A stretch of 64,000 nt of DNA, taken from assembly GCA_044866775.1 (NCBI GenBank), contig JBIOUG010000095.1, positions 4,415-68,414 of the forward strand. Reading direction: 5' to 3'. Below are positions 1-47,184 of the stretch, one piece after another. The position numbers were made by a program, and so were the translations under genes. The stretch is from Thermoanaerobaculia bacterium. Lineage in GTDB: Bacteria > Acidobacteriota > Thermoanaerobaculia > Multivoradales > UBA5704. Numbering within the stretch: position 1 is the first letter of the stretch; each line of letters starts with the position of its first letter. Under the pieces are notes generated by a model, which saw only the letters and a program-made list of their open reading frames with translations, ran no database searches and was not told the DNA's origin.

Positions 1-1545
1 CGGTCACCGTGTTCTTCTTCCTCGGCGGGCTCTTCGCCCTGCTGGTGCGGCTCGAGCTCCTCACCCCGCCCGGCGACCTGGTGCAGCCGGACACCTACAA
101 CCGGCTCTTCACCATGCACGGCGTGGTGATGGTCTTCTTCTTCCTCATCCCGGCGATCCCGGCGGTGCTCGGGAACTTCCTGATCCCGATCATGATCGGC
201 GCCCGCGACCTCGCCTTCCCGCGCATCAACCTGGCGAGCTGGTACATCTACGTGCTGGGCGGCCTCTTCACCCTCTGGTCGGTGATCCAGGGCGGCGTCG
301 ACACCGGCTGGACCTTCTACACCCCGTACTCGACGAGCTTCTCCAACACCTACGTCGTCTCGACGGCGCTCGGCATCTTCATCACCGGCTTCTCGTCGAT
401 CTTCACCGGCCTCAACTTCATCGTCACCATCCACCGCATGCGGGCGCCGGGGCTCACCTGGTTCCGGCTGCCGCTCTTCGTCTGGGCGCACTACGCGACG
501 AGCCTCATCTTCATCCTCGGCACGCCGGTCATCGCCGTCACCGTCCTGATGGTGGCGCTCGAGCGGGTCCTCCACCTCGGCATCTTCGATCCGGCGCTCG
601 GCGGCGACCCGGTCCTGTTCCAGCACCTCTTCTGGTTCTACTCCCACCCGGCGGTCTACATCATGATCCTGCCGGCCATGGGGGTGATCAGCGAGCTGGT
701 GGCGGCCTTCTCGCGCAAGCGCATCTTCGGCTACCGCTGGGTCGCCTACGCCTCGATCGGCCTCGCGGTGCTCGGCTTCCTGGTCTGGGGACACCACCTC
801 TTCGTCTCCGGCCAGTCGCTCTACGCCGCGACGATCTTCTCGGTGCTCTCGATGCTGGTGGCGATCCCCTCGGCGGTGAAGGTCTTCAACTGGACCGCCA
901 CCCTCTACGAGGCGTCGATCTCCTACGAGACGCCGATGCTCTACGCCCTGGGGTTCATCGGCCTCTTCACGATCGGCGGCCTGACCGGGGTGATGCTCGC
1001 CACCCTGGGCTTCGACGTCCACGTCCACGACACCTACTTCGTGGTGGCGCACTTCCACTACATCATGGTCGGCGGCACCATCATGGGGTACCTGGGCGGC
1101 CTCCATTACTGGTGGCCGAAGATCGCCGGGCGCCTCTACCCGATCTTCCTCTCGCGCCTCGCGGCGCTGCTCGTCTTCGTCGGCTTCAACTTGACGTTCT
1201 TCCCGCAGTTCGTCCTCGGCTATCTCGGCATGCCGCGCCGCTACTGGTCCTACCCCGACGAGTTCCAGGTGCTCAACGTGATGTCGACCGCCGGCGCCTC
1301 GATCCTCGGCGTCGGCTACGTCATCCCGATGGCCTACTTCCTCTGGTCGATGCGCTACGGCAAGGCGGCGACGGCCAACCCCTGGGGCGCCGTCGGGCTC
1401 GAGTGGGAGACCAGCTCGCCGCCGCCGACCGAGAACTTCCTGCTGCCGCCGGTCGTCGACCACGGGCCGTACGACTACGGCGTCGGCTACAAGGGAGACT
1501 CCGAGGAGAAGCCGCGGACGCCGCCGCAGGCGCAGGAGGCGCACG

Positions 1546-1553
<8 letters not shown>
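1..1553 (+). CDS. ctaD: cytochrome c oxidase subunit I (heme-copper oxidase catalytic subunit); N-terminus cut by window edge
   Basis: Translation of ORF 9..1553 is a polytopic heme-copper oxidase with [30 protein letters not shown] and [12 protein letters not shown] motifs. The frame is open to the window start. The 3' end overlaps the next gene by 8 nt. Confidence 0.95.
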
Positions 1554-2560: not shown

Positions 2561-3148
2561 ATGCGCGCCAACGAGACTCTCCTCGACCTCTTCCTCGAGC
2601 TCCAGCTCCTCGACCGCATCCCGCGCAGCGGCTTCGTGCTGCGCGGCGTCGCCTCCCCGGAGAGCGTCACCGAGCACTCCTGGCACGTGCTGTTCCTGGT
2701 CTGGGCGCTGGGCGCCGAGGTCCCGGAGGTGGACCTCCCGCGCGCGGTCGAGATCGCCCTGGTCCACGACCTCGCCGAGCTGCGCATCGGCGACCTGCCA
2801 CGCACCGCCGCGCGCTACTTCCCGGAAGGGGCCAAGAGAGGCGCCGAGACCGCCGCCATCGACGAGATCCTGGCCCCCCTCCCGGAGCGCGCCCGCAGCC
2901 TCTACCGCGACTACCTCGAGGGCAAGAGCCCCGAGGCCCGCCTGGTGAAGGCCTGCGACAAGCTCCAGCTCATGCTCAAGGTGGCGGTCTACGAGCGCTG
3001 GGGCACCGGCGCGCTCGCGGAGTTCTGGGACAACCCGGACAACTTCCCCGACCCGGCGTTCCCGCCGGTGCGCGCGCTCTTCGAGGAGCTCCTCCGCCGG
3101 CGCCGGCAGGAGCCGGAACGGCTGGATCCGCTGACGGAAGATCGGTAG
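2561..3148 (+). CDS. HD-domain phosphohydrolase (YfbR-like 5'-deoxynucleotidase family)
   Basis: SVTEHSWHVLFLVWAL followed by ALVHDLAELRIGDLP gives the H...HD...D metal-binding pattern of HD hydrolases. Length (195 aa) fits the YfbR family. Confidence 0.8.
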   Translation: MRANETLLDLFLELQLLDRIPRSGFVLRGVASPESVTEHSWHVLFLVWALGAEVPEVDLPRAVEIALVHDLAELRIGDLPRTAARYFPEGAKRGAETAAIDEILAPLPERARSLYRDYLEGKSPEARLVKACDKLQLMLKVAVYERWGTGALAEFWDNPDNFPDPAFPPVRALFEELLRRRRQEPERLDPLTEDR

Positions 3149-3246: not shown

Positions 3247-3506
3247 TTAGGCGAGCGGCGCGATCTTGCCCGGGACCTCGTGGTGCCGAGCTCGCTGCCA
3301 GCACAAGCGGAGCTCGCCGCGATGGAGAGACGCCCACTCGATGACTAGGCCAGGGCGCGCCCGGGGAGATCGCCTTGCAAAAGCGCCAGGTTCTCGATTC
3401 CCACGACCGCCCGGTGCTCGGCGTACTCGACGTGGAAGTGCGGCGGCTCGTGCTCCCGGTAGAACATGCGGATCACGAGGCCGTAGAAGCGCGCGATCTC
3501 AGGCAC
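3247..3506 (-). pseudogene. DUF4160-family gene interrupted by a 1-nt frameshift
   Basis: A GTG at 3506 opens VPEIARFYGLVIRMFYREHEPPHFHVEYAEHRAVVG..LPGRALA and reaches a stop at 3345. The expected C-terminus (GLVIEWASLHRGELRLCWQRARHHEVPGKIAPLA, stop at 3247-3249) continues in the adjacent frame. Confidence 0.6.
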
Positions 3507-3783
3507 GCGCGTTTGCGGTCGCCAGGCCCGGCCAGAGGTCCTCGGGCCGCTGCCCGGTGATCTCGAGGTACAGGCTGTCGGGGCAGAGCTCGATGTCTTC
3601 GCTCCAGGCGATCGAGTCTCCCGGGCCGATGGTGACGGCCTCGAAGGTCCCCGGCTGCTCCCAGGCCGCGAAGACTCCCTTGCCGGCGAGGTCCGAGAGG
3701 TCAATCTCCCCCTCGACCCCGTCGTCATAGCGCAGCCAGATGCGGTAGTTGGGAAGCGGACGGACGGCGACAGGGCGTGGCAT
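3499..3783 (-). CDS. DUF2442 domain protein
   Basis: This is the last 94 codons of track ORF 3499..4437: MPRPVAVRPLPNYRIWLRYDDGVEGEIDLSDLAGKGVFAAWEQPGTFEAVTIGPGDSIAWSEDIELCPDSLY. An alternative ATG lies at 3807. It overlaps the DUF4160 start by 8 nt. Confidence 0.7.
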   Translation of the reverse strand: MPRPVAVRPLPNYRIWLRYDDGVEGEIDLSDLAGKGVFAAWEQPGTFEAVTIGPGDSIAWSEDIELCPDSLYLEITGQRPEDLWPGLATANARA

Positions 3784-3860: not shown

Positions 3861-4982
3861 TCACCCGACAGCCCTGAGGGTCGGCGGCGTCGTGTCGGCC
3901 ACCTCGGCCACGGCGAAGGCGCCGCCCGCGAAGCCGCAGCCGTCGGCGGCGGTGACGTCGAAGCGCACGGTGGCCGGGCCGCCGGCCAGGTTCGCGACCA
4001 GGGCGCTCCCCTCGATCTCGACCGTCCGGCCGTCCACCTGCTGGGCGACGAAGGCGAGGTTCGACAGGTCGGCGCGGCCGTCCACGATGGCGGCCGCGAC
4101 CTCGACGTCTCCGGCGGCGACCGAGCAGTCGTCGGTGACGGTCGCGGTGAAGGTCACCGCGAGCTGGTATGCCGCGTCGACCTCGCCGCCCTCTGCGCTC
4201 GCCGCGACCTCGGGCGCGCCGGCGACGACGAGGAAGTCGGCGTTCGAGATGTCGAAGAAGATGTTGTCCACGGCCGAGACGCGGATCCGCGCCGCGGCGG
4301 TCTCCTCGCAGGGCAGGACGACCGCGTGCGGCCCGTCGTTGGCCACGCCAGGCGCCAGCGGGTCGTAGGTGAACCCGCCGTCGCTGGAGAGCGCGATGTC
4401 GACCAGGTCCGCGATCGCGCCGCCGCCGACCTCCCACCTGACCTCCTCCGTGCAGCCCGCCCCGAGCTCGACGAAGCTGTTGGGGCTGGTGACGCGGAAG
4501 GGATCGCCCTCGACGGCGATCTCGACCGTGTCGTAATCGACGCCGCCGCCGTCCTGCCGCTGGTCGCGCGCGGTCAGGCGGAAGGTGAGGGGATCGCCGA
4601 CGCGGTCGACCTGCGGCAGCAGATCGCCCAGCGTCGTGGTGTTGCCGATGATGTCGCTGAGCTGCGGGAAGGTGCGCGCCGGGCTCGCCGCCGGCGGGAA
4701 CGAGCCGAACAGCGCGCCGCAGCCGGGATCAGTGCCGGGCAGGAACTGGCCGGGCGCCAGGTCGAACTGCTCCCAGGCGTAGGTCAGGGTGTCGGCCTCG
4801 GGATCGTCGGCCGAGCCGGTGAGGACGAAGGGCGTGTCGCGCGGGATCGTGGAGTCGGCCCCGGCGTCGACCTCGGGCGCGGAGTTGCCGGTCGCGCCGG
4901 CGACGGCGCAGGCGTTGCCGCCGCCGCTCGTGACGTAGGCGACGATCTGGTCGAAGCTGCGGGTGTGGAAGTAGGTGTCCAT
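3861..4982 (-). CDS. C-terminal region of a reprolysin-like (M12B-type) secreted zinc metalloprotease; catalytic domain absent, probably a gene remnant
   Basis: The in-frame sequence upstream of the first Met reads SGTCGAANNIQTTTMDTYFHTRSFDQI, which matches the end of the protease domain in this family. It is followed by PEVDAG..IPRDTPFVLTGSADDPEADTLTYAWEQFD and FRLTARDQRQDGGGVDYD modules. No HExxH motif is present. See finding. Confidence 0.5.
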   Translation of the reverse strand: MDTYFHTRSFDQIVAYVTSGGGNACAVAGATGNSAPEVDAGADSTIPRDTPFVLTGSADDPEADTLTYAWEQFDLAPGQFLPGTDPGCGALFGSFPPAASPARTFPQLSDIIGNTTTLGDLLPQVDRVGDPLTFRLTARDQRQDGGGVDYDTVEIAVEGDPFRVTSPNSFVELGAGCTEEVRWEVGGGAIADLVDIALSSDGGFTYDPLAPGVANDGPHAVVLPCEETAAARIRVSAVDNIFFDISNADFLVVAGAPEVAASAEGGEVDAAYQLAVTFTATVTDDCSVAAGDVEVAAAIVDGRADLSNLAFVAQQVDGRTVEIEGSALVANLAGGPATVRFDVTAADGCGFAGGAFAVAEVADTTPPTLRAVG

Positions 4983-5236: not shown

Positions 5237-7918
5237 TCAGGTAGGCGTTCCTGTCGCGGCGATGCGGGCGCGGAGGGCCGCTATGTGAGCGGCGCGCGGC
5301 TCGGCGGCCGGGTGGTCGATGGACCGCTCGTAGTCAACGCAAACTTGCATGAGGTCGGCGGCGCGGGCCAGGTCGCTTTCCTGCTCGTAGAGGAGGCCGA
5401 GGTTCCAGCAGGCGTTCGCCTCCCCCCGCCGGTCGCCGATCTGCCGCGCGACCACGAGGCGCTGCTCGTAATACTCGATCGCCTGCCGCGGCTCCCCAAG
5501 CGCCGCATAGGCGTTAGCCACGTTGCCCAGGGCGTATCCCTCACCCCGCCGATCGCCGATCTCCCGCGAGATCACGAGGCGCTCCTCGTAATATTCGATC
5601 GCCCGCCGCGGCTCCCTAAGCGCCGCGTAGGCAAGGCCCAGGTTTCCCAGGACCTGACCCTCTCCTCGGCGATCGCCGATCTCCCGCGCGATCACGAGGT
5701 GCTGCTCGTAGTACTCGATCGCCCGCCGCGGCTCCCCAAGCGCCGCGTAGGCAAGGCCCAGGTTGCTCAGGACCTGACCCTCTCCTCGGCGATCGCCGAT
5801 CTCCCGCGCGATCACGAGGTGCTCCTCGTAATATTCGATCGCCCGCCGCGGCTCCCCAAGCACCGCGTAGGCGTTGCCCAGATTGCCGAGGGCGTTCCCT
5901 TCGCCCCGTCGATCGCCGATCTCCCGCGCGATCACGAGGTGCTGCTCGTAGTACTCGATCGCACGCCGCGGCTCCCCAAGCTCCGCGTAGGCAAAGCCCA
6001 AGTTGCCGAGGGCGTTCCCCTCTCCCTGCCGGTCGCCGATCTTCCGCGCGATGACGAGCACCTGCTCGTGGTGCTCGATCGCACGCCGGGGCTCCCCAAG
6101 GTCCGCGTAAGCGTTGCCCAGGTTGCCGAGGTGTGCTCCTTCCGCAGCCCGGTTGTTCATGCGCCGCGCGGCCACGACCGCCGATTGCAGCCAGCCCACC
6201 CGTTGCCGCGGATGGAGGCGGAGGTGAAGACAGTAGGCCCCGACGTTGGGGTAGTCGCTGCACAGCGCGGCGGCCCGCTCGTCGTCCGCGGCGCGCGCCG
6301 CGGACCAGGCCTGGCCGGCCTCGACGTTCCTCCGCTCGGCGTCGAAGAGCGCCAGCCCGGCCAGCAAGGAAGCGCCACCCTTCAGGTACAGCACGTTCGC
6401 CGACCGCAGCACCCCTGCGTAGTGGGCCGCGTGGCGCCGCTCGCTCTGGTCGCGCTCGGCCTCGGCGAGTTGCGCGCCGGCGAAGTCGCGGGCCAGGTCG
6501 TGGAGGCGATAGCGGCCGTCCTCCCACTCGACGAGGCTGGCGTTGACCAGCTCGCCCAGAGTGTCGCGGGCGGGAGCAACCTCCACCTCCCATACCGCGG
6601 CGGCGCCGGCAGCGTCGAAGGTGCCGGGGAAGACGGCGAGTGTTCGCCAGTGGGCGCGGAGCTCTTCGGCAAGCAGTTCGTAGCTGGTGGCGAGCGCGCC
6701 CTCGATCAGGCCGAGGCGCTCCTTGGCGTCGGCGAGCTTGCGGGCGTACTCCTCGGGCGTGAGCCATGGCTTCTCGGCGAGCGCGCTGCCGGCGAGGCGG
6801 AGAGCGAAGGGGAGGCGGCCGCAGCGGCGGGCGATCTCGGCGGCCTGGTTCCCGATGCGGGGTGCGATGCGCAGCAGCAGCGTCTGGGCGTCGGCCCCGG
6901 GCAGTTCGTCGAGGTCCTTGGCGACAAGACCGGGCAGGGTGAAATGAAAGCGTGAAGTAACGAGGAGGAAGCACCCGGCAGGCGGAGTGAGCGGCTCCAC
7001 CTGCGCGCGGCCGGCGGCGTTGTCCATGAGCAGGAGGGCGCGCTGGCCGTGGAGGGAGGAACGGTAGAGCCCGTCCAGCTCGGCCGCGGAATCCGGTAGC
7101 TGCGCCGTCGGATGGTAAGCGCGGACAACGTGCGCCATCGCCAGGGCGGCGGTGAGCGGCTGCGGACTGACGCCCTTGAGATCGAGGTAAAGCTGCGCGT
7201 CGGTGTAGAGGGGCGTCAGCTCCTGCGCGAGCTTGAGCGCCAGGGCGGTCTTGCCGATGCCACCGGCGCCGCGGACAACCAAGGTCGCAGCGCCGCCAAG
7301 CTCCAAGGCCGCCCGGAGCTCCGCCAGCTCCATTTCCCGGCCGGTGAAGTCAGCAGGCGGGGACGGGATCTGATGGAGAGCTTGGGGCAGGGTCGGTATG
7401 GGCTGCTGTCCGACCTCGGGACTATGCTGTAAATCGCTTCCTGGCTCCCGCGGCTGGCGCCCCCCGTCCAACAGCCTGCGCACCTCCTTCGCGATCTTTG
7501 CCAGCTCGGCGTTTCGCTGTTCCCCGCGGAAGCTAGCGAGAGCGCGGCCGCCGCGTGGCCGCACCTGCATCGCAGCCAGCCAGGGGACCTCGTCCCACGC
7601 GCAGGCGCTGACGATCACTGGCAGCACGTGGATGCCGTCGGCGGCGCGACGCTCGAGGAGGCGGTGCACCTCCTCGCGCAAGATGAACCTGGACGTCAGT
7701 GAGTGGGCTGAAACGAGGAGGACGGCAACCTCCGCCCGTTCCATCGCGGCGCTGATCTCGCCAAGCCAGTCGCCGCCGCCGGTAGTCCTATCGTCGTCCC
7801 AGGTCTCGAGAAGCCCCTGCTGTTCCAGGACACCGAGATGGGAGACGAGCTGGTCCTTCCAGCGGCTGTCTTTGTGGCTGTAGCTGACGAAGACCGTCCG
7901 CGAGGGCACTCCCACCAT
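5237..7918 (-). CDS. TIR - NB-ARC (STAND P-loop NTPase) - TPR repeat protein (bacterial NLR-like, presumed antiphage or signalling)
   Basis: N-terminal TIR_2-like segment VFVSYSHKDSRWKDQLVSHL...AVLLVSAHSLTSRFILREEV. Walker A is VVRGAGGIGKTALALKLA and Walker B-like is RALLLMDNA. The C-terminus carries 6 near-identical plus 1 divergent 40-aa TPR units (GEPRRAIEYYEQHLVIAREIGDRRGEGNALGNLGNAYAAL). Start is placed at MVGVPSRTVFVSY (7918); an alternative ATG lies at 8032. Confidence 0.85.
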   Translation of the reverse strand: MVGVPSRTVFVSYSHKDSRWKDQLVSHLGVLEQQGLLETWDDDRTTGGGDWLGEISAAMERAEVAVLLVSAHSLTSRFILREEVHRLLERRAADGIHVLPVIVSACAWDEVPWLAAMQVRPRGGRALASFRGEQRNAELAKIAKEVRRLLDGGRQPREPGSDLQHSPEVGQQPIPTLPQALHQIPSPPADFTGREMELAELRAALELGGAATLVVRGAGGIGKTALALKLAQELTPLYTDAQLYLDLKGVSPQPLTAALAMAHVVRAYHPTAQLPDSAAELDGLYRSSLHGQRALLLMDNAAGRAQVEPLTPPAGCFLLVTSRFHFTLPGLVAKDLDELPGADAQTLLLRIAPRIGNQAAEIARRCGRLPFALRLAGSALAEKPWLTPEEYARKLADAKERLGLIEGALATSYELLAEELRAHWRTLAVFPGTFDAAGAAAVWEVEVAPARDTLGELVNASLVEWEDGRYRLHDLARDFAGAQLAEAERDQSERRHAAHYAGVLRSANVLYLKGGASLLAGLALFDAERRNVEAGQAWSAARAADDERAAALCSDYPNVGAYCLHLRLHPRQRVGWLQSAVVAARRMNNRAAEGAHLGNLGNAYADLGEPRRAIEHHEQVLVIARKIGDRQGEGNALGNLGFAYAELGEPRRAIEYYEQHLVIAREIGDRRGEGNALGNLGNAYAVLGEPRRAIEYYEEHLVIAREIGDRRGEGQVLSNLGLAYAALGEPRRAIEYYEQHLVIAREIGDRRGEGQVLGNLGLAYAALREPRRAIEYYEERLVISREIGDRRGEGYALGNVANAYAALGEPRQAIEYYEQRLVVARQIGDRRGEANACWNLGLLYEQESDLARAADLMQVCVDYERSIDHPAAEPRAAHIAALRARIAATGTPT
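5395..6135. repeat. six tandem 120-bp repeats (coding the TPR units of the STAND protein)
   Basis: The sequence lines 5401-6130 are in exact 120-bp register, for example the recurring cgccgatctcccgcgcgatcacgaggtgctgctcgtagtactcgatcgcccgccgcggctccccaagcgccgcgtaggc. Confidence 0.9.
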
Positions 7919-8040
7919 TTTAGCGGCAGTGAGATCGTGGGCGGCAGGCGCCGCGCTCCCCCACCCGGATCCTTCGCTGCGCGCTCCGGGACCGCGTCGG
8001 ACGTCCGCCTCCGCGCCAGGGCGCGCGATCACGATGGCGC

Positions 8041-8481
8041 GCGCTCGACCACCGTCACGAGCGCTCCATCCCCGGAATGGGAGCTCAGTTAGGCGGCCGG
8101 ACGCTCCGTCGCCGTTCCGGTGGCCCGATTACCATTCTCGGCGCTCGAATACTTGTTCCGAGCGCGCAATTACCCCTCCGGGCGCGCAAGTTCCGACTTC
8201 GGCGCTCAAGTTCCGTTCCGGGCACTCGATCACCATTTCAGGCGCTCGAGTTCCGATCTGGGCGCGAAACTATCGTTCTCGGCACTCAAGCACCAATCCG
8301 GGCGCTCAAGTTCCAATTTCGGCGCTCGAGTTCCGTTCCGGGCGCTCGATAACCGCTTTCGGCGCGCGATCATCATTCAGGACACGCAAATCACCAGTCC
8401 GGGCACTCGATCACCGCCTCGGCCCGCCAAGGTCCGTCTCCGGCGCTTGGGTTCGCTGATCGGCGCTCCACCGCCGTCTGT
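8041..8481. repeat. tandem array of about 22 units of 20 bp (consensus about GGCGCTCRAGTTCCGNTYYS, with a GGCACTCGATCACC variant)
   Basis: 18 units lie in perfect 20-bp phase from 8041 to 8400, for example ggcgctcaagttccgttccg, ggcactcgatcaccatttca, ggcgctcgagttccgatctg. A 1-nt slip and 4 more units follow. The array is intergenic, between divergent genes starting at 7918 (-) and 8539 (+). Confidence 0.9.
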
Positions 8482-8498: not shown

Positions 8499-8538
8499 TT
8501 TTGACCACGGCACGGTCAAATTGCTAGGATCTTTGACC
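8499..8538. promoter_or_regulatory. operator-like TTTGACC inverted repeat plus a third half-site abutting the ATPase start codon
   Basis: ttttgaccacggcacggtcaaa (7-bp arms, 7-nt spacer) lies at 8499-8520. A further tttgacc at 8532-8538 sits immediately before the ATG at 8539. Confidence 0.3.
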
Positions 8539-9792
8539 ATGCTCGCCCGGATGGTCGGTGCGCGTCTCCCTTCCCCGACCGGGCCTCGGCGGCTCGTGGT
8601 GCTGACGGGGGCGCGTCAGGTGGGGAAGACGACGCTGGCTCGCGCGCTCTACGGCAAGAAGCTCCGCTACCTGAACCTCGACTCGCCGGGAGAGCGCGAG
8701 CGACTCCGGGGAGTGCCCGCCGAGGGATGGGCGCGGGTGGTCGGGCCGGCGGTGCTCGACGAGGTGCAAAAAGCTCCCGGGCTCCTCGACAAGATCAAGT
8801 GGGCGTACGACGAAGGGGAGCTGCGGTTCTCGGTGCTGCTCGGCTCCTCGCGCATCCTGCTGCTCGAGCAGGTGCGGGAGACGCTCGCGGGGCGGGTGTT
8901 CCTCTACGAGCTGTGGCCGCTCACCGTTGGCGAGCTCGCCGCTCACTTTGGAGGGACCGCTCCGGCCGAGCCGCTGATCGCCACGCTGGCGGCCGATCCC
9001 GCCGGCGCCGCCGCGCGGCTGCGCCCGCTGCTCGACGGCGTCGTCGGCCCGCAGGCGGGCGTCGCCCAGGCGGCGGTCCAGCACAGCCTGGAGTGGGGCG
9101 GTCTCCCCGCCCTCCTCCAGTACCCTGTCGAGGAGCGGCGGCAGTGGCTCGACGGGTACCACGCGACCTATCTCGAACGGGACCTGGCCGATCTCGCCCA
9201 GCTCCGCGACCTCGAGGCATTCACTCTCTGTCATCGCCTGGCGTCGCTGCGCGCGGGAAGGATCCTCTCCTATTCCGAGCTCGCCCGCGATGCCGCCCTC
9301 CCCATCACCACGGTGCGGCGCTACCTGCGGTACCTCGAGCTCTCCTACCAGATCTTCCACTTGCCGGCCTGGGCGGGCAATCCCAGCCTGCGCCTGATCA
9401 AGGCCCCGAAGCTCATCTGGTTCGACAGCGGCGTGCAGCGCGCCCTCTCGGGCGAGGTCGGCGGACTGCGCGGCGAGCAGTACGAGAGCACCCTGATCGC
9501 GCAGATCCTGATGACCCTGTGGAATCTCGGCGTGCGTGCCGAGGCGTCCTACCTGCGCACGGCCGGCGGTCTCGAAGTCGACCTCGTGATCGAGCGGCAG
9601 GAGGGGCTCCTGGCCTTCGAGATCAAGGCGCGCTCGCGCGTCGAGACGCGCGACGCGGGCCGGATCGAGAGGGCGCGGCGGGCCCTGGGAGAGCGCTACC
9701 GCGGCGGGATCGTCGTCTATCGCGGCCAGCAGGTCGTGCAGCTCACGGAGACGGTCTTCGCGGTCCCCGACTGGCTGCTGCTGGGGTACTGA
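8539..9792 (+). CDS. AAA+ ATPase with DUF4143 C-terminal domain (AAA_14/DUF4143 family)
   Basis: Walker A is LVVLTGARQVGKTTLARALY. The family-typical C-terminal half includes LDGYHATYLERDL and SELARDAALPITTVRRYLRYLELSY. The first ATG is at 8539; the track ORF starts at a TTG at 8521. Confidence 0.8.
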   Translation: MLARMVGARLPSPTGPRRLVVLTGARQVGKTTLARALYGKKLRYLNLDSPGERERLRGVPAEGWARVVGPAVLDEVQKAPGLLDKIKWAYDEGELRFSVLLGSSRILLLEQVRETLAGRVFLYELWPLTVGELAAHFGGTAPAEPLIATLAADPAGAAARLRPLLDGVVGPQAGVAQAAVQHSLEWGGLPALLQYPVEERRQWLDGYHATYLERDLADLAQLRDLEAFTLCHRLASLRAGRILSYSELARDAALPITTVRRYLRYLELSYQIFHLPAWAGNPSLRLIKAPKLIWFDSGVQRALSGEVGGLRGEQYESTLIAQILMTLWNLGVRAEASYLRTAGGLEVDLVIERQEGLLAFEIKARSRVETRDAGRIERARRALGERYRGGIVVYRGQQVVQLTETVFAVPDWLLLGY

Positions 9793-12431
9793 GCTCTATC
9801 CTTCGCCTCGTACCAGCTCCGCCCCCACCCGGCGTCGACCACGAGAGGCACCGCCAGCGCCGCCACGCCCTCCATCTCCTGCTTGACCTTCGCCGCCACC
9901 GTCTCGACCTCGGCCTCCGGCACCTCGAAGACCAGCTCGTCGTGGACGGTCAGGAGCAGGCGCGCCTCGGGGTGCTCGTCTCGCAACCGGCAATCGACCG
10001 CGATCATCGCCTTCTTCAGGAGGTCCGCCGCGGTGCCCTGGATCCTGGCGTTGATCGCCATGCGGCGGGCGTTCTCGCGCAGCGCCCGGTTCTTGCTCTG
10101 GATCTCGGGGAGCCAGCGGACGCGGCCGTAGAGGGTCTCGACGCGGCCTTCCTTCTCGGCGCTCGCCAGCGTCTCGTCGAGGTAGCGCCGCACGCCCGGG
10201 TACTGCGCCAGGTAGTCGCGGATGAAGCGGTCGGCTTCCTTCTGCGGGATGCCGAGGTTCTGCGCCAGGCCGAAGGCGCTCATGCCGTAGAGGATGCCGA
10301 AGTTGATGGTCTTGGCGGCGCGGCGCTGCTCGGGGGTGACCAGGGCCGCCGAGATGCCGAAGACGGTGGCGGCGGTGGCGCGGTGGATGTCGGTGCCGTC
10401 GGCGAAGGCCTTGACCAGCGCCTCCTCCTCGGCGATGTGGGCGAGGATGCGCAGCTCGATCTGGCTGTAGTCCGCCACCAGGAGCTGGCTGCCCGGACCG
10501 GCGATGAAGGCCTTCCTGATGCGCTGCCCGAGCTCGGTGCGGATCGGGATGTTCTGCAGGTTCGGGTTGGCCGACGACAGCCGGCCGGTCGCCGCCACCG
10601 CCTGGTAGTAGCGGGTGTGGAGGCGGCGGTCGCCGTCGACCAGGCCGGGGAAGGCGTCGATGTAGGTGCTCTTGAGCTTCGACAGCTCGCGGTAGCGCAG
10701 CAGCACCTCCGGCAGCGGATAGCCGCGCGCCGCCAGCTCCTCGAGCGTCTCGGCGCCGGTCGAGTAGCTGCGGGTCTTCTGCGTGCGCTTGAGCACCGGG
10801 TAGCCGAGCTTCTCGAACAGGATGACGCCGAGCTGCTGCGGCGAGTTGAGGTTGAAGCGCTCGCCGGCGATGTCGTAGGCCTGCCCCTCGAGCGCCAGCA
10901 GCTCCTTGCCGAGCTCGCTCGCCATGTCGGCGAGGAGGTCGATGTCGAGCAGGATGCCGCGCTCCTCCATCCCCAGGAGCACCGGCAGCAGCGGCGCCTC
11001 GATGTCGCGGTAGATGCGCTCGAGCGCCGGGCTCGCTGCCAGCTCCTCGCGCATCGGCGGCACGAGCTGCCGCGCGAGGTCGATGCGCTCGCCGGCGTAG
11101 GCGGCGAGGCGCGAGTCGCCGAGCGGCGGCTCCTGTGCCTTGTCCCAGCCGGCGTCCTTGGCGGAGAGCGGCTTGCGATTGAGCCGCTCGAGCGCCAGCT
11201 CCTCGAGCGCATGGCCGTGCACCGAGGGCTTCAGGAGATAGGAGGCCAGCATGGCGTCGAAGAGCGGCGCCCGGCAGAAGCGGCCGGCGGCGCAGAGGCG
11301 CAGGACCTCCTTCAGGTTGTGGCCGACGAGCGTGGTCGCCGGGTCCTCCGCCCAGCGCGCCAGGGTCTCGACGGCGGCCTCGCGCATCCCGGGCCGCCGC
11401 AGGTCGGCCATCCAGACCGCGCCTTCGGCGCTCCCGGCCGCCAGCCCGAGCGGGTGCTCCTCCCCGAGCACGGCGATGTAGAGGTCGCCCGCGAGCGCCG
11501 CCGCCAGCCGCCGCCACTCCTCGGGAGACTCGACCTCGGTCGCCGGCGCCGCGGCCTCCCCGGCCACCGCCGCCGTCGGCGCCAGCTCCTCGGCGAGCGA
11601 GAAGAACTCGAGGTCGGTGAAGAGGCGGCGCAGCGCCACCGGGTCCGGGGCCTCGCGGCGGAGCTTCTCGGGCTCGAAGGGGATCGGCAGGTCACAGTGC
11701 AGGGTCGTCAACTGCTTCGAGAGCTTGAGCTGCTCGGCGTGCGCGCGCAGAGTCTCCCGCTGCTTCGGCGGCGCCTCCTCGAGCCGCGACAGCAGCTCCT
11801 CGATCGAGCCGAACTGCTGGATCAGCTTCTTGGCGCCGACCCGTCCGATCCCCGGAACGCCGGGGATGTTGTCGATGGTGTCGCCGATCAAGGCCAGGAA
11901 GTCCGGAACCTGCGCGGGGAGGACCCCATAGTCCTCCTCGACGTCCGGCGGGCCGTAGACCTTCTCCTTGATCAGGTGGAGGAACGACACTCCGGGCCGC
12001 ACGAGCTGCATCAGGTCCTTGTCGGCGGAGACGAGCACGACGTCGTACCCCGCCTCGGCTCCCTTGCAGGCGAGCGTGCCGAGCACGTCGTCGGCTTCGT
12101 AGCGCGGCTCTTCGACGATCGGGATCCGATAGGCGTCGATGATCTGGCGGATCCAGGGGAGCTGGTTGATGAGGTCGGCCGGCATCGGCGCGCGGTTCGC
12201 CTTGTACTGCTCGTAGAGATCGCTGCGGGCGCTCGGCGCGCCGACGTCGAGCGCCATGGCCATGAACTCGGGCTGCTGCTCGCGCAGGAGCTTGCGCAGG
12301 GTCTGCACGACGATGTAGACGGCGTTCGTCGGCTGCCCGCGGGAGGTCGAGAGCCGCGTCGGGGCGAAGAACGAGCGGTAGATGAGGTAGTAGCCGTCGA
12401 TCAGGAACAGCCGCGGGCGGGGCTCGGTCAT
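9717..12431 (-). CDS. polA: DNA polymerase I
   Basis: The 5'-nuclease N-terminus is RLFLIDGYYLIYRSFFA. Polymerase motif A is LVADYSQIELRILAH, motif B is RRAAKTINFGILYGMSAFGL and motif C is LLLTVHDELVFEV. Length is 904 aa. Confidence 0.95.
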   Translation of the reverse strand: MTEPRPRLFLIDGYYLIYRSFFAPTRLSTSRGQPTNAVYIVVQTLRKLLREQQPEFMAMALDVGAPSARSDLYEQYKANRAPMPADLINQLPWIRQIIDAYRIPIVEEPRYEADDVLGTLACKGAEAGYDVVLVSADKDLMQLVRPGVSFLHLIKEKVYGPPDVEEDYGVLPAQVPDFLALIGDTIDNIPGVPGIGRVGAKKLIQQFGSIEELLSRLEEAPPKQRETLRAHAEQLKLSKQLTTLHCDLPIPFEPEKLRREAPDPVALRRLFTDLEFFSLAEELAPTAAVAGEAAAPATEVESPEEWRRLAAALAGDLYIAVLGEEHPLGLAAGSAEGAVWMADLRRPGMREAAVETLARWAEDPATTLVGHNLKEVLRLCAAGRFCRAPLFDAMLASYLLKPSVHGHALEELALERLNRKPLSAKDAGWDKAQEPPLGDSRLAAYAGERIDLARQLVPPMREELAASPALERIYRDIEAPLLPVLLGMEERGILLDIDLLADMASELGKELLALEGQAYDIAGERFNLNSPQQLGVILFEKLGYPVLKRTQKTRSYSTGAETLEELAARGYPLPEVLLRYRELSKLKSTYIDAFPGLVDGDRRLHTRYYQAVAATGRLSSANPNLQNIPIRTELGQRIRKAFIAGPGSQLLVADYSQIELRILAHIAEEEALVKAFADGTDIHRATAATVFGISAALVTPEQRRAAKTINFGILYGMSAFGLAQNLGIPQKEADRFIRDYLAQYPGVRRYLDETLASAEKEGRVETLYGRVRWLPEIQSKNRALRENARRMAINARIQGTAADLLKKAMIAVDCRLRDEHPEARLLLTVHDELVFEVPEAEVETVAAKVKQEMEGVAALAVPLVVDAGWGRSWYEAKDRAQYPSSSQSGTAKTVSVSCTTCWPR

Positions 12432-43151: not shown

Positions 43152-43548
43152 TCCACTCCAGCGCCGTCGGGGAATGTACCGTCTGTCACGGTACCTCGGC
43201 ATCTATGGCTAAGTGCCGAGAGGTCGTGGCTGAGCGCACACCGCATCGGGCGCGAGGAGCCCGCGACGGGCTCCGCTGCCTCGCGTGTTGCGTATTTCAA
43301 TCATTGACGCTCGGCGAACCGAGCCGATAGTCTGACGGCAGGTAGTCAAAGCGACCAACGGGAGATCGTGATCGACGACGCGTGAAGCCGGCTCGGCGGG
43401 TCCGAGCCGAGACCTCTAAAGCGGGCACGGCAGAGGGCGCAACCTCTGCCGGCCCTGGCCCACACACGAGGAGGGACCTCATGTGCAGACGTAGTCGGAA
43501 GTGTAACCCCCTGCCGGATCCACCGGCGCCCAAGACGACAAGGACACG

Positions 43549-43920
43549 TTGGAGCAGGACCCCGCCGTGGCGCGCGCCCAGGCGCTCGCGGAGAGCGGGA
43601 GGGCCGTGGCGCGCGGGCGCCGCCACGCCGCCGGTGGCGAGTCGAGCGAGTCCGAAGAGCAACAGTCCGCGGCAGCCCTGCGCCGGATCGTCGGCGACTT
43701 TCTCGAGCGGGAGGCGCGGCGGCGGCGGCGGGACGCGCGGGCGCGGGCGGCGCGTGCCAATGGCCGCCGGTTCGCGACGATCTGCGGCCGTTTCCAGGGC
43801 CACGGCAGGGTGCCGGACCTGCGGCTGTCAGGAAAGTGGCTCGCGGACGCGGGCTTCGATCTCGGGCAGCAGTACGAGGTGGAGGTCGAGGCGGGGAGGC
43901 TGACGATTCGGGCGGTCTGA
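43549..43920 (+). CDS. SymE-family (AbrB-fold) toxin-like protein
   Basis: The C-terminal PDLRLSGKWLADAGFDLGQQYEVEVEAGRLTIRAV matches the SymE/SpoVT-AbrB-like signature. The N-terminal Arg-rich extension and the TTG start are uncertain. Confidence 0.55.
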   Translation: MEQDPAVARAQALAESGRAVARGRRHAAGGESSESEEQQSAAALRRIVGDFLEREARRRRRDARARAARANGRRFATICGRFQGHGRVPDLRLSGKWLADAGFDLGQQYEVEVEAGRLTIRAV

Positions 43921-44030: not shown

Positions 44031-44121
44031 TGAAGCCATTCCCACTTCCGAGTACGCTCGATGGGACTCTGCCCGAAGAAAGACATGACTTTCCTGCGGA
44101 GTTGAGGGCACTAGGCTCAGC

Positions 44122-47100
44122 ATGACCGATCTGTTCTTCCAGCGACCGATCCTCAACTCGCCGTACGAGTACCCGAGCCGGCACTGGGAGCTCGATTCGA
44201 CGGGCCAGCCCACGGGAAAGATCCTCGAGAAGCGCCGTGAAGCAGCGTACATCACGCCGATCCCGAAGCCGAAGAAGCGCAGGACGGGCCAGAGGGAGTT
44301 CGTCTTCGACGAGGGTAAGGGGCTCTCGACGGAGGAGCAGCAGTACGATCCGACGCCGGTCATCAACGCCTTGCGCGCCAAGGTGGACGCCTGGCGGGCG
44401 CTGCCCAATCCGAACGACTGGCTGGTGACGCCGGAGACGGCGCGCCTCCTCCAGCACTGGCGCCACCACGAGTTCAGCGGAGAGCGGCCGTTCTTCTGCC
44501 AGGTCGAGGCGGTCGAGACGCTCATCTGGCTGACCGAGGTCGCACCGAAGCTCGGCAAGGAGGGACAGCGGTTCATCGACCACTTGGACCGGGCCAACGA
44601 ACAGTCGAACCCCGGCCTGCGGCGCCTCGCGCTCAAGCTCGCCACGGGCTCCGGCAAGACGATCGTGATGGCGATGGTAGTCGCCTGGCAAACGATCAAC
44701 GCCGTGCGGCGGCCGAATAGCAGATCGTACACACGGGGGTTCCTGGTCGTGACTCCCGGTCTGACGGTCAAGGACCGGCTGCGCGTCCTCCAGCCCCACG
44801 ATCCGGACTCCTACTACCAAAGCCGCGAGCTCGTGCCGAACGACATGCTCCGCGACCTCGAACGCGCGAAGATCGTCATAACGAACTTCCAGGCGCTCAG
44901 GCTCCGCGAAACCCTCGAGGTCTCAAAAGGCGGGCGCGCCCTGCTCCAGGGACGACATGGCGAGCCGATCGACACCAAGGAGACGGAAGGCCAGATGCTC
45001 CAGCGCGTCCTGCCCGAGCTGATGGGGTTGCGCAACATCCTGGCGATCAATGACGAGGCCCACCACTGCTACCGCGAAAAGCCGACGGAGGCCGACGAGG
45101 AGGAGGCCGAGCTCAAGGGGGAGGAGCGCGATGAGGCCAAAAAGAACCGCGAAGCAGCGCGACTCTGGATCTCCGGGCTCGAAGCGCTCCAGCGCAAGCT
45201 AGGCTTGATGCGCATCATCGACCTCTCGGCGACCCCCTTCTTTCTCCGCGGCTCCGGCTATCGGGAAGGGGTGCTCTTCCACTGGACGATGAGCGACTTC
45301 TCGCTCATGGATGCCATCGAGTGCGGCATCGTCAAGCTCCCCCGCGTGCCGGTCGCCGACAACATCCCCGGCGGCGAGATGCCGAGGTTCCGCAATCTCT
45401 GGGAGCACATTCGCAACCGGATGCCGAAGAAGGGGCGCGGGAAGGCTGGCACGAGCTACGACCCGCTCAAGCTCCCTGTCGAGCTCCAGACCGCGCTCGA
45501 AGCGCTCTATGGCCACTACGACAAGACCTTCGAGCTATGGCGCAAGGCAGGTGTCGAGGTCCCCCCCTGCTTCATCGTCGTCTGCAACAACACCTCGGCA
45601 TCGAAGCTGGTCTACGACTACATTTCCGGCTTCTTCCGCGAGGCAGAAGAGGGCACAAGCACGTTCGAGAACGGTCGTCTACCCCTCTTCCGCAACTTCG
45701 ACGAGCACGGCAACCCGCTCCCCCGGCCTCGGACGCTGCTCATCGACTCCGAGCAGCTCGAGTCCGGGGAGTCGCTAAGCGACGACTTCCGAGCGGCGGC
45801 GGCCGACGAGCTCGAGCGCTTCCGGCGCGAGATCGTCGAACGGACAGGGGATCGCACCAGGGCTGAGAACCTCTCGGATCAGGAAATCCTTCGGGAAGTC
45901 ATGAACACCGTCGGCAAGAAAGGGCGCCTCGGCGAGGGGACACGGTGCGTGGTCTCGGTTTCGATGCTGACCGAGGGATGGGACGCGAACACCGTCACGC
46001 ACGTACTCGGCGTCCGGGCCTTCGGCACCCAGCTCCTCTGCGAGCAGGTCATCGGTCGCGCGCTGCGGCGGCAATCCTATGACCTGAATGAAGAAAAGCG
46101 CTTCAACGTCGAGTACGCCGACGTACTCGGGATTCCCTTCGATTTCACGGCGAAGCCGGTCATCGCGCCGCCGCAGCCACCGCGCGAGACGATCCTGGTC
46201 AGGGCGATCACCCCGGAGCGAGACGCCTGCGAGATCTGCTTCCCTCGCGTGGAGGGATACCGCGTAGAGCTCCCGGAGGAGCGGCTGGCGGCGACCTTCA
46301 CCGAAGATTCAACCCTCCTGCTCACTCCGGCCCTGGTCGGGCCATCGGTGACCCGCAACGAAGGGATCCTCGGCGAGGGGGTCGACCTGACGCTCGTCCA
46401 CACCGGGGAGCTCCGCCAGTCGACGCTCCTCTTCCACTTGACGCAGCGTCTCCTCTACACCAAGTGGCGTGACCCAGGCGGTGAGCCCAAGCTCTACCTC
46501 TTCGGCCAGTTGAAGCGCATCACCCGCGAGTGGCTGGAGAGCCATCTCGCCTGCAAGGGCGGCACCTATCCGGCGCAGCTCATGTACCTGAGCCTCGCCG
46601 ACCTGGCTTGCGAGCGGATCACAGCGGCGATAACCCGCCACTACTCGGCGGAACGCCCGATCCGGGCGATCCTCGACCCCTACAACCCGACGGGATCCAC
46701 CCGCTTCGTCCACTTCACGACCTCGAAGAAGCTCCGCTGGCAGACGGCCCCGAATCTCTGCCATGTCAACTGGGTGATCCTGGACAGCAACTGGGAGGCC
46801 GAGCTCTGCCGGGCCGTCGAGAGCCACTCGCACGTGCTTGCCTATGTGAAGAACCACAACCTCGGTTTCGAGGTCCCCTACAGGATGGGCTCGGAGTCGC
46901 GCCGCTACCGCCCGGACTTTATCGTCCTGGTCGACGACGGGCACGGCTTGGAGGACCCGCTTCACCTAGTGGTCGAGATCAAGGGCTACCGGGGGGAGGA
47001 CGCAAAGGAGAAGAAGTCGACCATGGAGACGTACTGGGTGCCTGGGGTGAACAACCTGGCCGCTTACGGGCGCTGGGACTTTGTCGAGCTGAAGGACATC

Positions 47101-47184
47101 TGGGAGATCGAATCGGATTTCCGGGCGACAATCGACACTGCCATCGCCGAGATGATGAAAGAGAAAACCGGAGCGGCGGTCTGA
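44122..47184 (+). CDS. type III-like restriction enzyme Res subunit (SF2 DEAH helicase + C-terminal PD-(D/E)xK nuclease)
   Basis: The N-terminus is FFQRPILNSPYEYPSRHWELD. Helicase motif I is LATGSGKT, motif II is INDEAHHCY and motif VI is QVIGRALRR. The nuclease motif is YRPDFIVLV...LVVEIKGY. Confidence 0.9.
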   Translation: MTDLFFQRPILNSPYEYPSRHWELDSTGQPTGKILEKRREAAYITPIPKPKKRRTGQREFVFDEGKGLSTEEQQYDPTPVINALRAKVDAWRALPNPNDWLVTPETARLLQHWRHHEFSGERPFFCQVEAVETLIWLTEVAPKLGKEGQRFIDHLDRANEQSNPGLRRLALKLATGSGKTIVMAMVVAWQTINAVRRPNSRSYTRGFLVVTPGLTVKDRLRVLQPHDPDSYYQSRELVPNDMLRDLERAKIVITNFQALRLRETLEVSKGGRALLQGRHGEPIDTKETEGQMLQRVLPELMGLRNILAINDEAHHCYREKPTEADEEEAELKGEERDEAKKNREAARLWISGLEALQRKLGLMRIIDLSATPFFLRGSGYREGVLFHWTMSDFSLMDAIECGIVKLPRVPVADNIPGGEMPRFRNLWEHIRNRMPKKGRGKAGTSYDPLKLPVELQTALEALYGHYDKTFELWRKAGVEVPPCFIVVCNNTSASKLVYDYISGFFREAEEGTSTFENGRLPLFRNFDEHGNPLPRPRTLLIDSEQLESGESLSDDFRAAAADELERFRREIVERTGDRTRAENLSDQEILREVMNTVGKKGRLGEGTRCVVSVSMLTEGWDANTVTHVLGVRAFGTQLLCEQVIGRALRRQSYDLNEEKRFNVEYADVLGIPFDFTAKPVIAPPQPPRETILVRAITPERDACEICFPRVEGYRVELPEERLAATFTEDSTLLLTPALVGPSVTRNEGILGEGVDLTLVHTGELRQSTLLFHLTQRLLYTKWRDPGGEPKLYLFGQLKRITREWLESHLACKGGTYPAQLMYLSLADLACERITAAITRHYSAERPIRAILDPYNPTGSTRFVHFTTSKKLRWQTAPNLCHVNWVILDSNWEAELCRAVESHSHVLAYVKNHNLGFEVPYRMGSESRRYRPDFIVLVDDGHGLEDPLHLVVEIKGYRGEDAKEKKSTMETYWVPGVNNLAAYGRWDFVELKDIWEIESDFRATIDTAIAEMMKEKTGAAV

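Follow-up and report, generated by a model that had tools for sequence, protein, structure and literature searches.

Bacterial proteins that join an AP-ATPase (NB-ARC) NTPase to tetratricopeptide repeats (TPRs) and resemble NOD-like receptors (NLRs) were reportedly described computationally in the survey of STAND proteins (signal transduction ATPases that have numerous domains) by Leipe, Koonin and Aravind. Fusions of a TIR domain to an AP-ATPase are counted among conflict systems (PMC7159879), and TIR-bearing 'all-in-one' bacterial NLRs have been described (10.1101/2020.01.06.895854). Here we analyse a gene of this kind from Thermoanaerobaculia bacterium, a member of the Acidobacteriota (assembly GCA_044866775.1). 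It lies at 5237-7918, on the minus strand, of a 64,000-nucleotide stretch of contig JBIOUG010000095.1 (positions 4,415 to 68,414), which we refer to as the window. The encoded 893-residue protein is an intact, single-polypeptide NLR-like sensor with a TIR head, an AfsR/Apaf-1-type NB-ARC switch and a TPR tail, and is very probably a TIR-armed conflict or immune receptor.

The protein belongs to the TIR-AP-ATPase-TPR class defined by computation (PMC7159879, PMC8195603, 10.1101/2020.01.06.895854), with which it has an identical tripartite architecture. Further points in common are the swapping of N-terminal heads, the preferential pairing of NB-ARC with TPR, high internal identity of the TPR units and enrichment in large-genome, 'complex' bacteria. 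The difference lies in the organisms covered: the published in-silico surveys that we consulted deal with actinobacteria, cyanobacteria and deltaproteobacteria, and the word Acidobacteria is absent from 10.1101/2020.01.06.895854. The architecture is neither rare nor new, and what we present is a solid annotation within a large family known computationally.

Among solved structures, the closest relative of the NB-ARC module and first TPRs is AfsR, a Streptomyces global regulator of SARP-NB-ARC-TPR organisation (PDB 8k60/8jke). The two proteins share a QLPxxxxDFTGR arm, a Walker B LLDNA, GxLPLAL and an [FL]HD motif, but in AfsR a SARP domain at the N-terminus binds DNA and the protein acts on transcription, whereas our protein carries a TIR and no DNA-binding domain. 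A SARP region (winged-helix plus BTAD) is absent: NF053617 matches only over AfsR positions 284-622, with 214 bits against a cut-off of 1430. Plant TIR-NLRs (RPP1, Roq1, RUN1/RPV1) have the same TIR-then-NB-ARC order and a catalytic glutamate in the same helix, but their sensor consists of LRRs (leucine-rich repeats) plus a C-JID in place of the TPR solenoid, and identity is 15-22%. The C-terminus of our protein is all-helical TPR with no LRR or C-JID, which sets it apart from the plant type. We know of no EDS1-type downstream pathway in bacteria.

Avs (AVAST) and bNACHT proteins likewise unite in one polypeptide a STAND NTPase with an effector head and with a sensor that is made of repeats or is TPR-like, and are proven single-gene phage sensors (10.1101/2022.07.19.500537; PMC11897194). 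In our protein, however, the NTPase is of the NB-ARC/AP-ATPase type, not NACHT and not of the Avs clades. At E<=0.01 there was no match to the PADLOC models of Avs/AVAST types 1-5 or to NACHT (PF05729), and the only PADLOC models matched were ThsB-TIR, a generic TPR, SAVED_TIR and C3a156, an oxidoreductase-annotated candidate that aligns with the TPR region. The fold match to Avs3 found with Foldseek is distant. Avs5 is an analogous single-gene system with proven antiphage activity. Compared with Thoeris, the TIR is ThsB-like but fused to a STAND-TPR body, and none of the neighbouring genes encodes SIR2, SLOG or Macro, so there is no adjacent ThsA. The TIR-AP-ATPases linked to VMAP and the FxSxx-COOH system do not fit either: the TPR-protein model NF040586 scores 96.8 against 300 bits, and the neighbours are cox, HD, polA and DUF4143 genes, not the peptide-processing kind (radical SAM, vWA-MoxR) that marks those loci.

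Two further systems resemble the protein by description. TIR-II of E. coli is an antiphage TIR+TPR single protein that requires its TIR active site (Wang et al. 2024, PMC11350192); TIR+TPR is the composition described for the E. coli protein that was assayed, with an additional ATPase in about 30% of the homologues (PMC11350192). Fungal NB-ARC-TPR NLRs (PMC4986451) are alike in their near-identical units, repeat-number polymorphism and few variable positions on the concave face. They differ in being eukaryotic and bearing other heads, and the evidence there is positive selection on alleles, as against variability between repeats and between homologues here. By analogy, the Thermoanaerobaculia protein may work like Avs, bNACHT, TIR-II and the plant TIR-NLRs.

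The coding sequence is complete, with its stop codon at 5237-5239. Although the stop-to-stop frame is open as far as 8128, the start is the ATG at 7918, which gives the N-terminus MVGVPSRTVFVSYSHKD and aligns with the MPxPxVFISYSHKD start of 24 homologues; an alternative GTG at 8032 was ruled out because the homologue N-termini coincide with the ATG. The same 24 homologues align over their full length at 50-70% identity, and an AlphaFold2 (AF2) model of the whole protein has a mean predicted local distance difference test score (pLDDT) of 90.7. In a window of about 70% G+C, the GC contents of the three codon positions (GC1/2/3) are 0.77/0.48/0.85, the pattern of a translated gene, with a GC3 lower than the 0.94-0.99 of the surrounding core genes. 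The initial annotation of this DNA, made from the letters and translations, had read 5237-7918 as one gene encoding a TIR_2-like N-terminus, a P-loop, an NB-ARC body and a TPR sensor. Its coordinates prove exact for a single intact open reading frame (ORF), and all four elements occur in that order with the catalytic motifs it named. It had pointed to a TIR or NB-ARC profile match and to survival of the catalytic glutamate and Walker motifs as decisive; the TIR_2 match exceeds its cut-off, and the glutamate and both motifs are kept.

The TIR domain occupies residues 8-150 (7469..7897; this and all further features of the gene are on the minus strand). Pfam TIR_2 (PF13676) scores 52.3 bits over residues 9-131 against a cut-off of 28 bits, and the closest PADLOC TIR model is ThsB1, a ThsB-type TIR (2.8e-26). 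Modelled by themselves in AF2 with an input of 59 homologues, residues 1-165 (pLDDT 89.7) take the flavodoxin-like TIR fold: all 47 PDB chains that Foldseek matches at E<=1e-3 are TIR domains. Plant NADase TIRs lead, with the RUN1 TIR at the top (E 2.7e-6, TM 0.62-0.64) and the RUN1 E100A-NAD entry 7s2z also present; L6 and the NADase-active TIRs of RPP1, SARM1, AbTir and the SPARTA TIR-APAZ are matched as well. Glu83 (codon 7670..7672) is the putative catalytic glutamate of the NADase site. It is invariant in 60/60 homologues that carry a TIR and lies in helix 77-94 of the model, in keeping with a catalytic glutamate in helix alpha-C. In a profile comparison with PDB sequences it pairs, through a one-residue gap and by profile rather than by residue-level superposition, with the glutamate of W-C-x-[DE]-E-L in RPV1, Cat1, AT1G72930 and Roq1, which is the catalytic glutamate of TIR NADases. 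The domain thus appears to retain its catalytic residue and is predicted to be NADase-competent. A solved 824-residue 'tetratricopeptide repeat protein' with an N-terminal TIR (PDB 9m0n/9umd) gave a weak match to the TIR profile (E 0.012) and none to the full-length query, and may be a different TIR-TPR defence protein. The TIR is followed by a disordered Pro/Gln-rich linker, residues 151-180 (7379..7468), with pLDDT < 50 at 154-179 and a length and sequence that vary among homologues.

Residues 181-485 (6464..7378) form an AfsR-like NB-ARC (AP-ATPase) STAND module, which opens with a conserved LHQxPxPPxDFTGR arm. The Pfam model of this domain (PF00931) stays below threshold here, at 16.6 against 23.5 bits, and its genome-wide search misses the protein too, while PF00931 matches are precomputed for many homologues of 55-60% identity. 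Other comparisons carry the assignment. A phmmer search finds AfsR (8k60) at 2.7e-47, and a profile of residues 180-500 built from 11 family members and searched against the PDB finds AfsR (E 1.7e-65), a wheat NB-ARC protein (9.7e-15), ADR2 (7e-14), Roq1 (5e-13), Apaf-1 (6e-12) and RPP1 (5e-10), with matches spanning the whole of the nucleotide-binding, first helical and winged-helix domains (NBD-HD1-WHD; profile positions about 4-314). With the full-length model as query, Foldseek places an archaeal STAND-TPR protein first (6mfv, 2.6e-15), then LGN, and also returns RPP1 (2e-9), Apaf-1 (5e-9), CED-4 (1e-6), plant NRCs and Avs3; TIR and NB-ARC together align with the core of the tetrameric RPP1 resistosome across 535 columns. 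The predicted NB-ARC body is thus borne out by family profile and fold search, for which PF00931 alone would have been insufficient.

The motifs of the switch are in place. The P-loop GAGGIGKT (Walker A) named in the initial annotation is found at residues 217-224 (7247..7270), and G217, G220, G222, K223 and T224 are invariant in 25 homologues. Walker B reads LLLMDN (residues 295-300, 7019..7036), with D299 and N300 invariant; it has Asp-Asn in place of Asp-Asp/Glu, as does AfsR (VLVLLDNA). An LHD motif at residues 472-474 (6497..6505), the MHD-equivalent of the winged-helix domain, aligns with AfsR FHD and wheat NLR MHH; H473 is invariant and L472 and D474 are conserved in at least 90%. The sensor-1 arginine motif TSR (TxR, 321-323) and GRLP (GxP, 367-370) are likewise invariant or conserved in at least 90%. 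Because the Asp-Asn Walker B and the LHQxPxPPxDFTGR arm are common with AfsR, the NTPase is placed by its sequence in the AfsR-like NB-ARC (AP-ATPase) clade.

Between the winged-helix domain and the repeats lies a wholly alpha-helical spacer of degenerate, TPR-like appearance (residues 486-590, 6149..6463; helices at 486-586 with pLDDT > 90). It leads into six near-identical TPR units of 40 residues (120 bp) at residues 592-831 (5426..6145), which Tandem Repeats Finder (TRF) reports as period 120, 6.0 copies and 86% matches. Several Pfam TPR models match this stretch (best 7e-42), and with the 120-bp periodicity they bear out the TPR sensor of the earlier reading. Pairs of units are 72-92% identical in DNA and 68-92% in protein, and resemble the LGN/Pins type (phmmer E ~1e-60). 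A degenerate capping TPR with 20-30% identity to the other units and a conserved C-terminal helix close the protein (residues 832-893, 5240..5425), the family consensus there being WNLGL...MQVxVDYEREIGHPDAEK..AALRARIA.

The repeats vary in number and at few positions. Among 111 homologues the count of full 40-residue units runs from 1 to 9 with a mode of 4, our protein having 6. In the same set entropy, both overall and within proteins, is highest at unit positions 4, 29, 5, 11 and 15, while positions 2, 6, 9, 10, 13, 16, 22 and 30 hardly change. Within helix A, positions 4, 8 (usually Asn), 11 and 15 follow an i, i+4, i+7, i+11 spacing and so fall on one helical face, which we propose, from the spacing and not from coordinates, as the putative ligand groove. 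When repeats 2-6 of the protein are compared pairwise, the six hypervariable codons hold 35/73 of the non-synonymous differences and 0/72 of the synonymous ones. The same pattern of repeat variability is known from fungal NB-ARC-TPR receptors (PMC4986451), and internally conserved TPR repeats were noted in bacterial NLRs by Dyrka et al. (10.1101/2020.01.06.895854); this variability is therefore supportive but not new.

The family is large, and its N-terminal heads are exchanged. A word-seeded search gave more than 1,794 matches among the 8,000 candidates scored, the nearest 55-68% identical, and where a source is named the homologues appear either under the label 'tetratricopeptide (TPR) repeat protein' or as 'Thermoanaerobaculia bacterium' proteins from metagenome-assembled genomes (MAGs). 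An exhaustive search of residues 1-560 against 1.84 billion cluster representatives (clusters at 50% identity) returned 4,045 clusters at E<=1e-30, a count that rises to 33,515 at E<=1e-10. Among the best 150 clusters the alignment begins at the TIR in only about 15-18, while about 130 of these 150 match from residue ~170 on, at target offsets of 2-1161: the same NB-ARC behind another N-terminus. From 31 loci with an NB-ARC-TPR of 39-63% identity we took the N-termini, scanned them against Pfam and found, on modules of 45-63% identity, DUF4062 (4 loci), an XRE-type helix-turn-helix (HTH; 4), CHAT protease (3), calcineurin-like phosphoesterase (3), TIR_2 (2), Mrr restriction nuclease (Mrr_cat; 1) and bacterial death-like domain 1 (bDLD1; 1); transmembrane N-termini, seen by eye in translations, also occur. 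DUF4062 is described as a TIR-like NADase in a 2026 preprint (10.64898/2026.05.01.722283), and the exchange of executioner heads on a constant switch-plus-sensor is the trait by which published surveys define bacterial NLR-like conflict systems (PMC7159879, PMC8195603, 10.1101/2020.01.06.895854). The family is centred on MAGs of Acidobacteriota (Thermoanaerobaculia, Pyrinomonadaceae, Blastocatellia), with relatives in Chloroflexota and Methanothrix.

Two observations on this chassis stand apart. Five loci (L023, L026, L027, L038, L042) have an N-terminus of 55-90 residues sharing SGG[VI]x[IVL]...V..GGD[VI]xGRD[IK], reminiscent of the bacterial amyloid signalling sequences of NB-ARC NLRs. In Methanothrix/Methanotrichaceae MAGs (L028, L037, L043, L056) the NB-ARC-TPR is 46-50% identical to the bacterial module, and in the first three of these archaeal methanogens it is fused to a calcineurin-like phosphoesterase head, which suggests transfer of the chassis between domains of life.

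We are now able to propose a mechanism, modelled on the systems compared above. At rest, the NB-ARC would hold ADP and the protein would be monomeric and autoinhibited. A ligand, most likely a protein or peptide of a phage or other invader, would bind the concave TPR groove, along the face formed in helix A by the usual Asn of unit position 8 together with hypervariable positions 4, 11 and 15. Binding would release the WHD/LHD lock, and nucleotide exchange would drive the NB-ARC to oligomerise. This would bring the N-terminal TIRs together into composite NADase sites around Glu83, and cleavage of NAD+ would arrest growth or kill the cell before the invader spreads, as in abortive infection. 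We put the probability of this whole chain, including direct depletion of NAD+, at roughly 0.6; the type of ligand, the oligomerisation, the NADase activity and the phenotype are each drawn by analogy. An immune or conflict role is supported indirectly, in that heads are swapped, loci are patchy and non-syntenic with no conserved partner, GC3 is lowered, the neighbouring ATPase gene matches the phage-defence candidate PDC-S01 and TPR variation is confined to few positions. The Avs/bNACHT-like logic proposed in the initial annotation is supported, with a correction. The head swapping, patchy distribution and PDC-S01 neighbour agree with immune-type logic, but the protein is not a member of Avs or bNACHT, as neither a PADLOC Avs model nor NACHT matches and the NTPase is an AfsR-like NB-ARC.

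Several points weigh against this proposal. Our literature search found no experimental work on this NB-ARC-TPR clade, which does not prove that none exists. No PADLOC model of Avs or another STAND defence system matches the protein, and the nearest PADLOC TIR model, ThsB, would fit a signalling enzyme equally well. Walker B is Asp-Asn, which may bear on ATP turnover. The chassis is not intrinsically immune, since 4 of its loci carry HTH heads and its nearest solved relative, AfsR, is a transcription factor. The gene does not sit in a dense defence island, and its homologues lie among housekeeping genes. Nor did we obtain evidence on mobility from carriage: no homologue occurs in 50,697 phage records, and the homologues found on plasmids, those of actinomycetes and cyanobacteria, are just ~30% identical.

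The main alternative retains this receptor logic and changes the output of the TIR, which would make a nucleotide signal, a cyclic ADP-ribose (cADPR) isomer or an ADP-ribose (ADPR) conjugate, for a distant effector, in the manner of ThsB and plant TIR-NLRs. In Thoeris, ThsB produces a signal and does not deplete NAD+. Among PADLOC models our TIR matches ThsB1 best, the signal-producing plant TIRs RUN1, RPP1 and L7 are among its closest structural counterparts, and with 20 TIR_2 ORFs of very different architecture in the genome a shared downstream pathway is conceivable. We nevertheless consider this version unlikely. Neither in the window nor at three close homologues does a gene for a candidate receptor or effector adjoin, although no genome search was aimed at ThsA-like SLOG/Macro proteins, and none of the window neighbours recurs at some 95 related loci. 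Moreover, the exchange of the TIR for destructive heads, the Mrr nuclease and the CHAT protease, suggests that the head is an executioner.

A second alternative, which we judge appreciably less probable still, is that of a non-immune STAND protein sensing an endogenous peptide or metabolite (a product resembling ribosomally synthesised and post-translationally modified peptides (RiPPs), a stress or a developmental cue) and steering physiology or the cell's own programmed death. The NB-ARC-TPR is, after all, most similar to AfsR, whose type of regulator controls secondary metabolism, and HTH-headed versions of the chassis exist among the 31 loci, while homologues sit among housekeeping genes. 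Partial NCBIfam matches were found to HaaT, a RiPP-associated TPR protein (260 bits), and to the TPR protein of the FxSxx-COOH system. These scores are, however, far under their cut-offs (260 against 1125, 214 against 1430 and 97 against 300 bits), and no RiPP, radical-SAM or peptide genes are among the neighbours. The head is a TIR with its catalytic Glu intact and not a DNA-binding domain, distribution is patchy even inside the genus, and repeat-number polymorphism with hypervariable groove positions is typical of non-self receptors (PMC4986451). It is highly improbable that the gene is a recently acquired passenger, non-functional or silenced in this genome: the patch around it does hold a truncated DUF4160 gene and a domain-poor 373-residue ORF, and a promoter scan found no sigma-70-like promoter on its strand, but the 893-codon frame is intact, the AF2 model is confident throughout, the codon-position GC is that of a translated gene, and decay is unlikely because all family-invariant residues are conserved.

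Turning from these alternatives to the surroundings of the proposed receptor, the window opens with coxI (3-1553, plus strand), coxIII (1546-2223, plus) and an HD-domain hydrolase gene (2561-3148, plus). A DUF2442 gene (3499-3783) and a truncated DUF4160 gene (3345-3560) follow on the minus strand (3345..3783). Their Pfam matches are 3.4e-13 and 2.5e-12, the latter covering only profile positions 1-46 of 65, and we regard them as a small pair of toxin-antitoxin-like genes, now broken, on the outer edge of an accessory patch. Next comes an ORF of 373 residues (3861-4982, minus) whose sole Pfam match is a weak PKD. On the other side of the receptor gene, and divergent from it, an ATPase gene (8539..9792, plus) encodes AAA_14 (1.2e-23) and DUF4143 (2e-28). 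It is a full-length match to PADLOC PDLC04790 PDC-S01 (2.9e-79; residues 3-412, profile 13-415/422), which is a phage-defence candidate only. A TTGACC...GGTCAA palindrome and a sigma-70-like site (8501-8530) lie directly before its ATG. The small accessory patch with decayed genes and a DUF4143 ATPase that had been described is therefore confirmed in its components. Beyond it lies polA (9717-12431, minus); at 9717-9800 the last 18-27 residues of PolA are unmatched in relatives (L020, L021, L022) and overlap the convergent ATPase gene.

None of these neighbours is a conserved partner: a tblastn search of the DUF4143 ATPase, the 373-residue ORF, the HD protein and ORF 3266-3730 against the related loci retrieved no recurring gene. 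Three close homologues are solitary among unrelated housekeeping genes (a dnaK operon with nrdR and lon; icd and mdh; scpAB and recG). The nearest full-length relative, 70% identical and in genus-mate G001, lies 63 kb from polA and adjoins an unrelated gene, the ORF downstream of it being without significant similarity. In one genus-mate the NB-ARC-TPR, 70% identical, lacks the TIR, and another has no close copy. The polA-Tgly-MoCF-FG-GAP side is syntenic in genus-mates G001, G003 and G004 and the other side is not; the genes that follow the polA 3' end in genus-mates lie on contig C35 of this genome. We looked for an orthologous position in relatives and rejected it, synteny being confined to the polA side, so the accessory patch marks a synteny break and not a conserved island site. 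The patchy, non-syntenic distribution and the lack of a recurring neighbour lead us to regard the TIR-NB-ARC-TPR gene as a stand-alone, horizontally mobile single-gene unit, like Avs and bNACHT.

Two side observations concern accessory genes. At locus L103 (7700-7963) DUF2442 and ParE-like genes lie immediately upstream of a 64%-identical TIR-STAND homologue, and in the window the DUF2442/DUF4160 pair is 1.4 kb from the receptor gene; this recurrence may be coincidence. Further along the window, a SymE-toxin-like ORF (43507-43920, plus; 2e-12) is followed by a 1,031-residue ResIII helicase (44089-47184, plus) with a C-terminal restriction-endonuclease-like domain, weak matches to PADLOC type III restriction endonucleases and a lower GC3 (0.87). 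Together they may mark a further accessory or defence site in the window.

The genome (5.8 Mb, 92% complete) is unusually rich in TIR domains, with 20 ORFs carrying TIR_2 above the Pfam cut-off; examples besides the one described here are C185:3938-7645, C178:45803-50071, C26:14187-17114, C181:19066-22098 and C148:33068-36856. Nine large TIR ORFs were scanned, and comprise two TIR-NB-ARC-WD40 proteins, TIR-nSTAND1, TIR-NACHT-FGE-sulfatase, TIR-CHAT-AAA_16-TPR, two with TIR and MalT-like TPR, TIR-WD40 and one 949-residue protein with an internal TIR. In at least 8 of the 20 the TIR is joined to a STAND NTPase module and/or a repeat sensor, of differing kinds, and our protein is the sole member of the TIR-NB-ARC-TPR subtype in the genome.

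Some of these genes are accompanied by tandem arrays of short repeats. The divergent intergenic region upstream of the receptor gene is filled by an array of ~520 bp (7960..8480, strand unassigned) that consists of about 23 degenerate 20-bp units with the core GGCGCTCAAGTTCCG, as read from the sequence and TRF. Across the whole genome TRF lists 446 period-21 and 71 period-20 rows, which merge into 101 arrays of period 20/21 or multiples, 74 of them outside gene calls made with a crude caller. Most arrays have their own unit, and many units contain a short palindrome. The unit of the array upstream of the receptor gene, GGAACTTGAGCGCCCGGAAC (family GGAaCTTGAGcGCCCgrAa), recurs in at least three other places, at C148:32888-33014, C187:5367-5707 and C8:37170-37353, the first of these arrays lying 51 bp past the stop of the TIR-CHAT-AAA-TPR (TIR-CHAT-STAND) gene. 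An array of 20/21 bp occurs within 800 bp upstream of 4/20 TIR ORFs (C43:26715-26907, C116:10926-11059, C116:68281-68489 and window 7960-8480), against 39/3,140 called genes (1.24%). The enrichment (binomial P ~1e-4; 0/5,000 random placements reach 4) comes from a post hoc test with a rough gene caller, and is a lead, not a result. Two more arrays near TIR ORFs (C178:45546-45912 and C181:18539-18608) fall below the filters.

Arrays are also seen near homologues elsewhere. Interleaved 20/21/41/62-bp repeats (L104:7475-7664) lie in the 830-bp gap upstream of homologue P0009, and NB-ARC-TPR loci with 20/21-bp arrays within 1 kb have them downstream (L031, L024, L047) or upstream (L055), that of L031 being 21 bp x 10. 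It is possible, although we consider it a long shot, that the gene is one unit of a large, co-managed receptor repertoire in which the arrays are protein-docking sites that silence, co-regulate or recombine NLR-like genes. If true, this would give bacterial immunity an as yet undescribed layer of control, acting at the level of the repertoire.

For the family as a whole, our analysis exposes an annotation gap: in the records examined an abundant group of proteins is labelled just 'tetratricopeptide repeat protein', and PADLOC v2 misses it, even though its features are all those to be expected in a TIR-armed NLR-like receptor. The TIR-NB-ARC-TPR gene is a good candidate for the first test of a TIR-armed member of the NB-ARC clade, but nothing in it contradicts what specialists would expect. 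Its regular 40-residue TPR units and few variable groove positions are attractive for mapping specificity, and the protein would offer a bacterial TIR-NB-ARC pair in which to study resistosome-style activation of a TIR. Overall, with a tested member the proven NLR-type immunity of bacteria would reach beyond NACHT and Avs into the NB-ARC clade, that of Apaf-1 and the plant resistance proteins.

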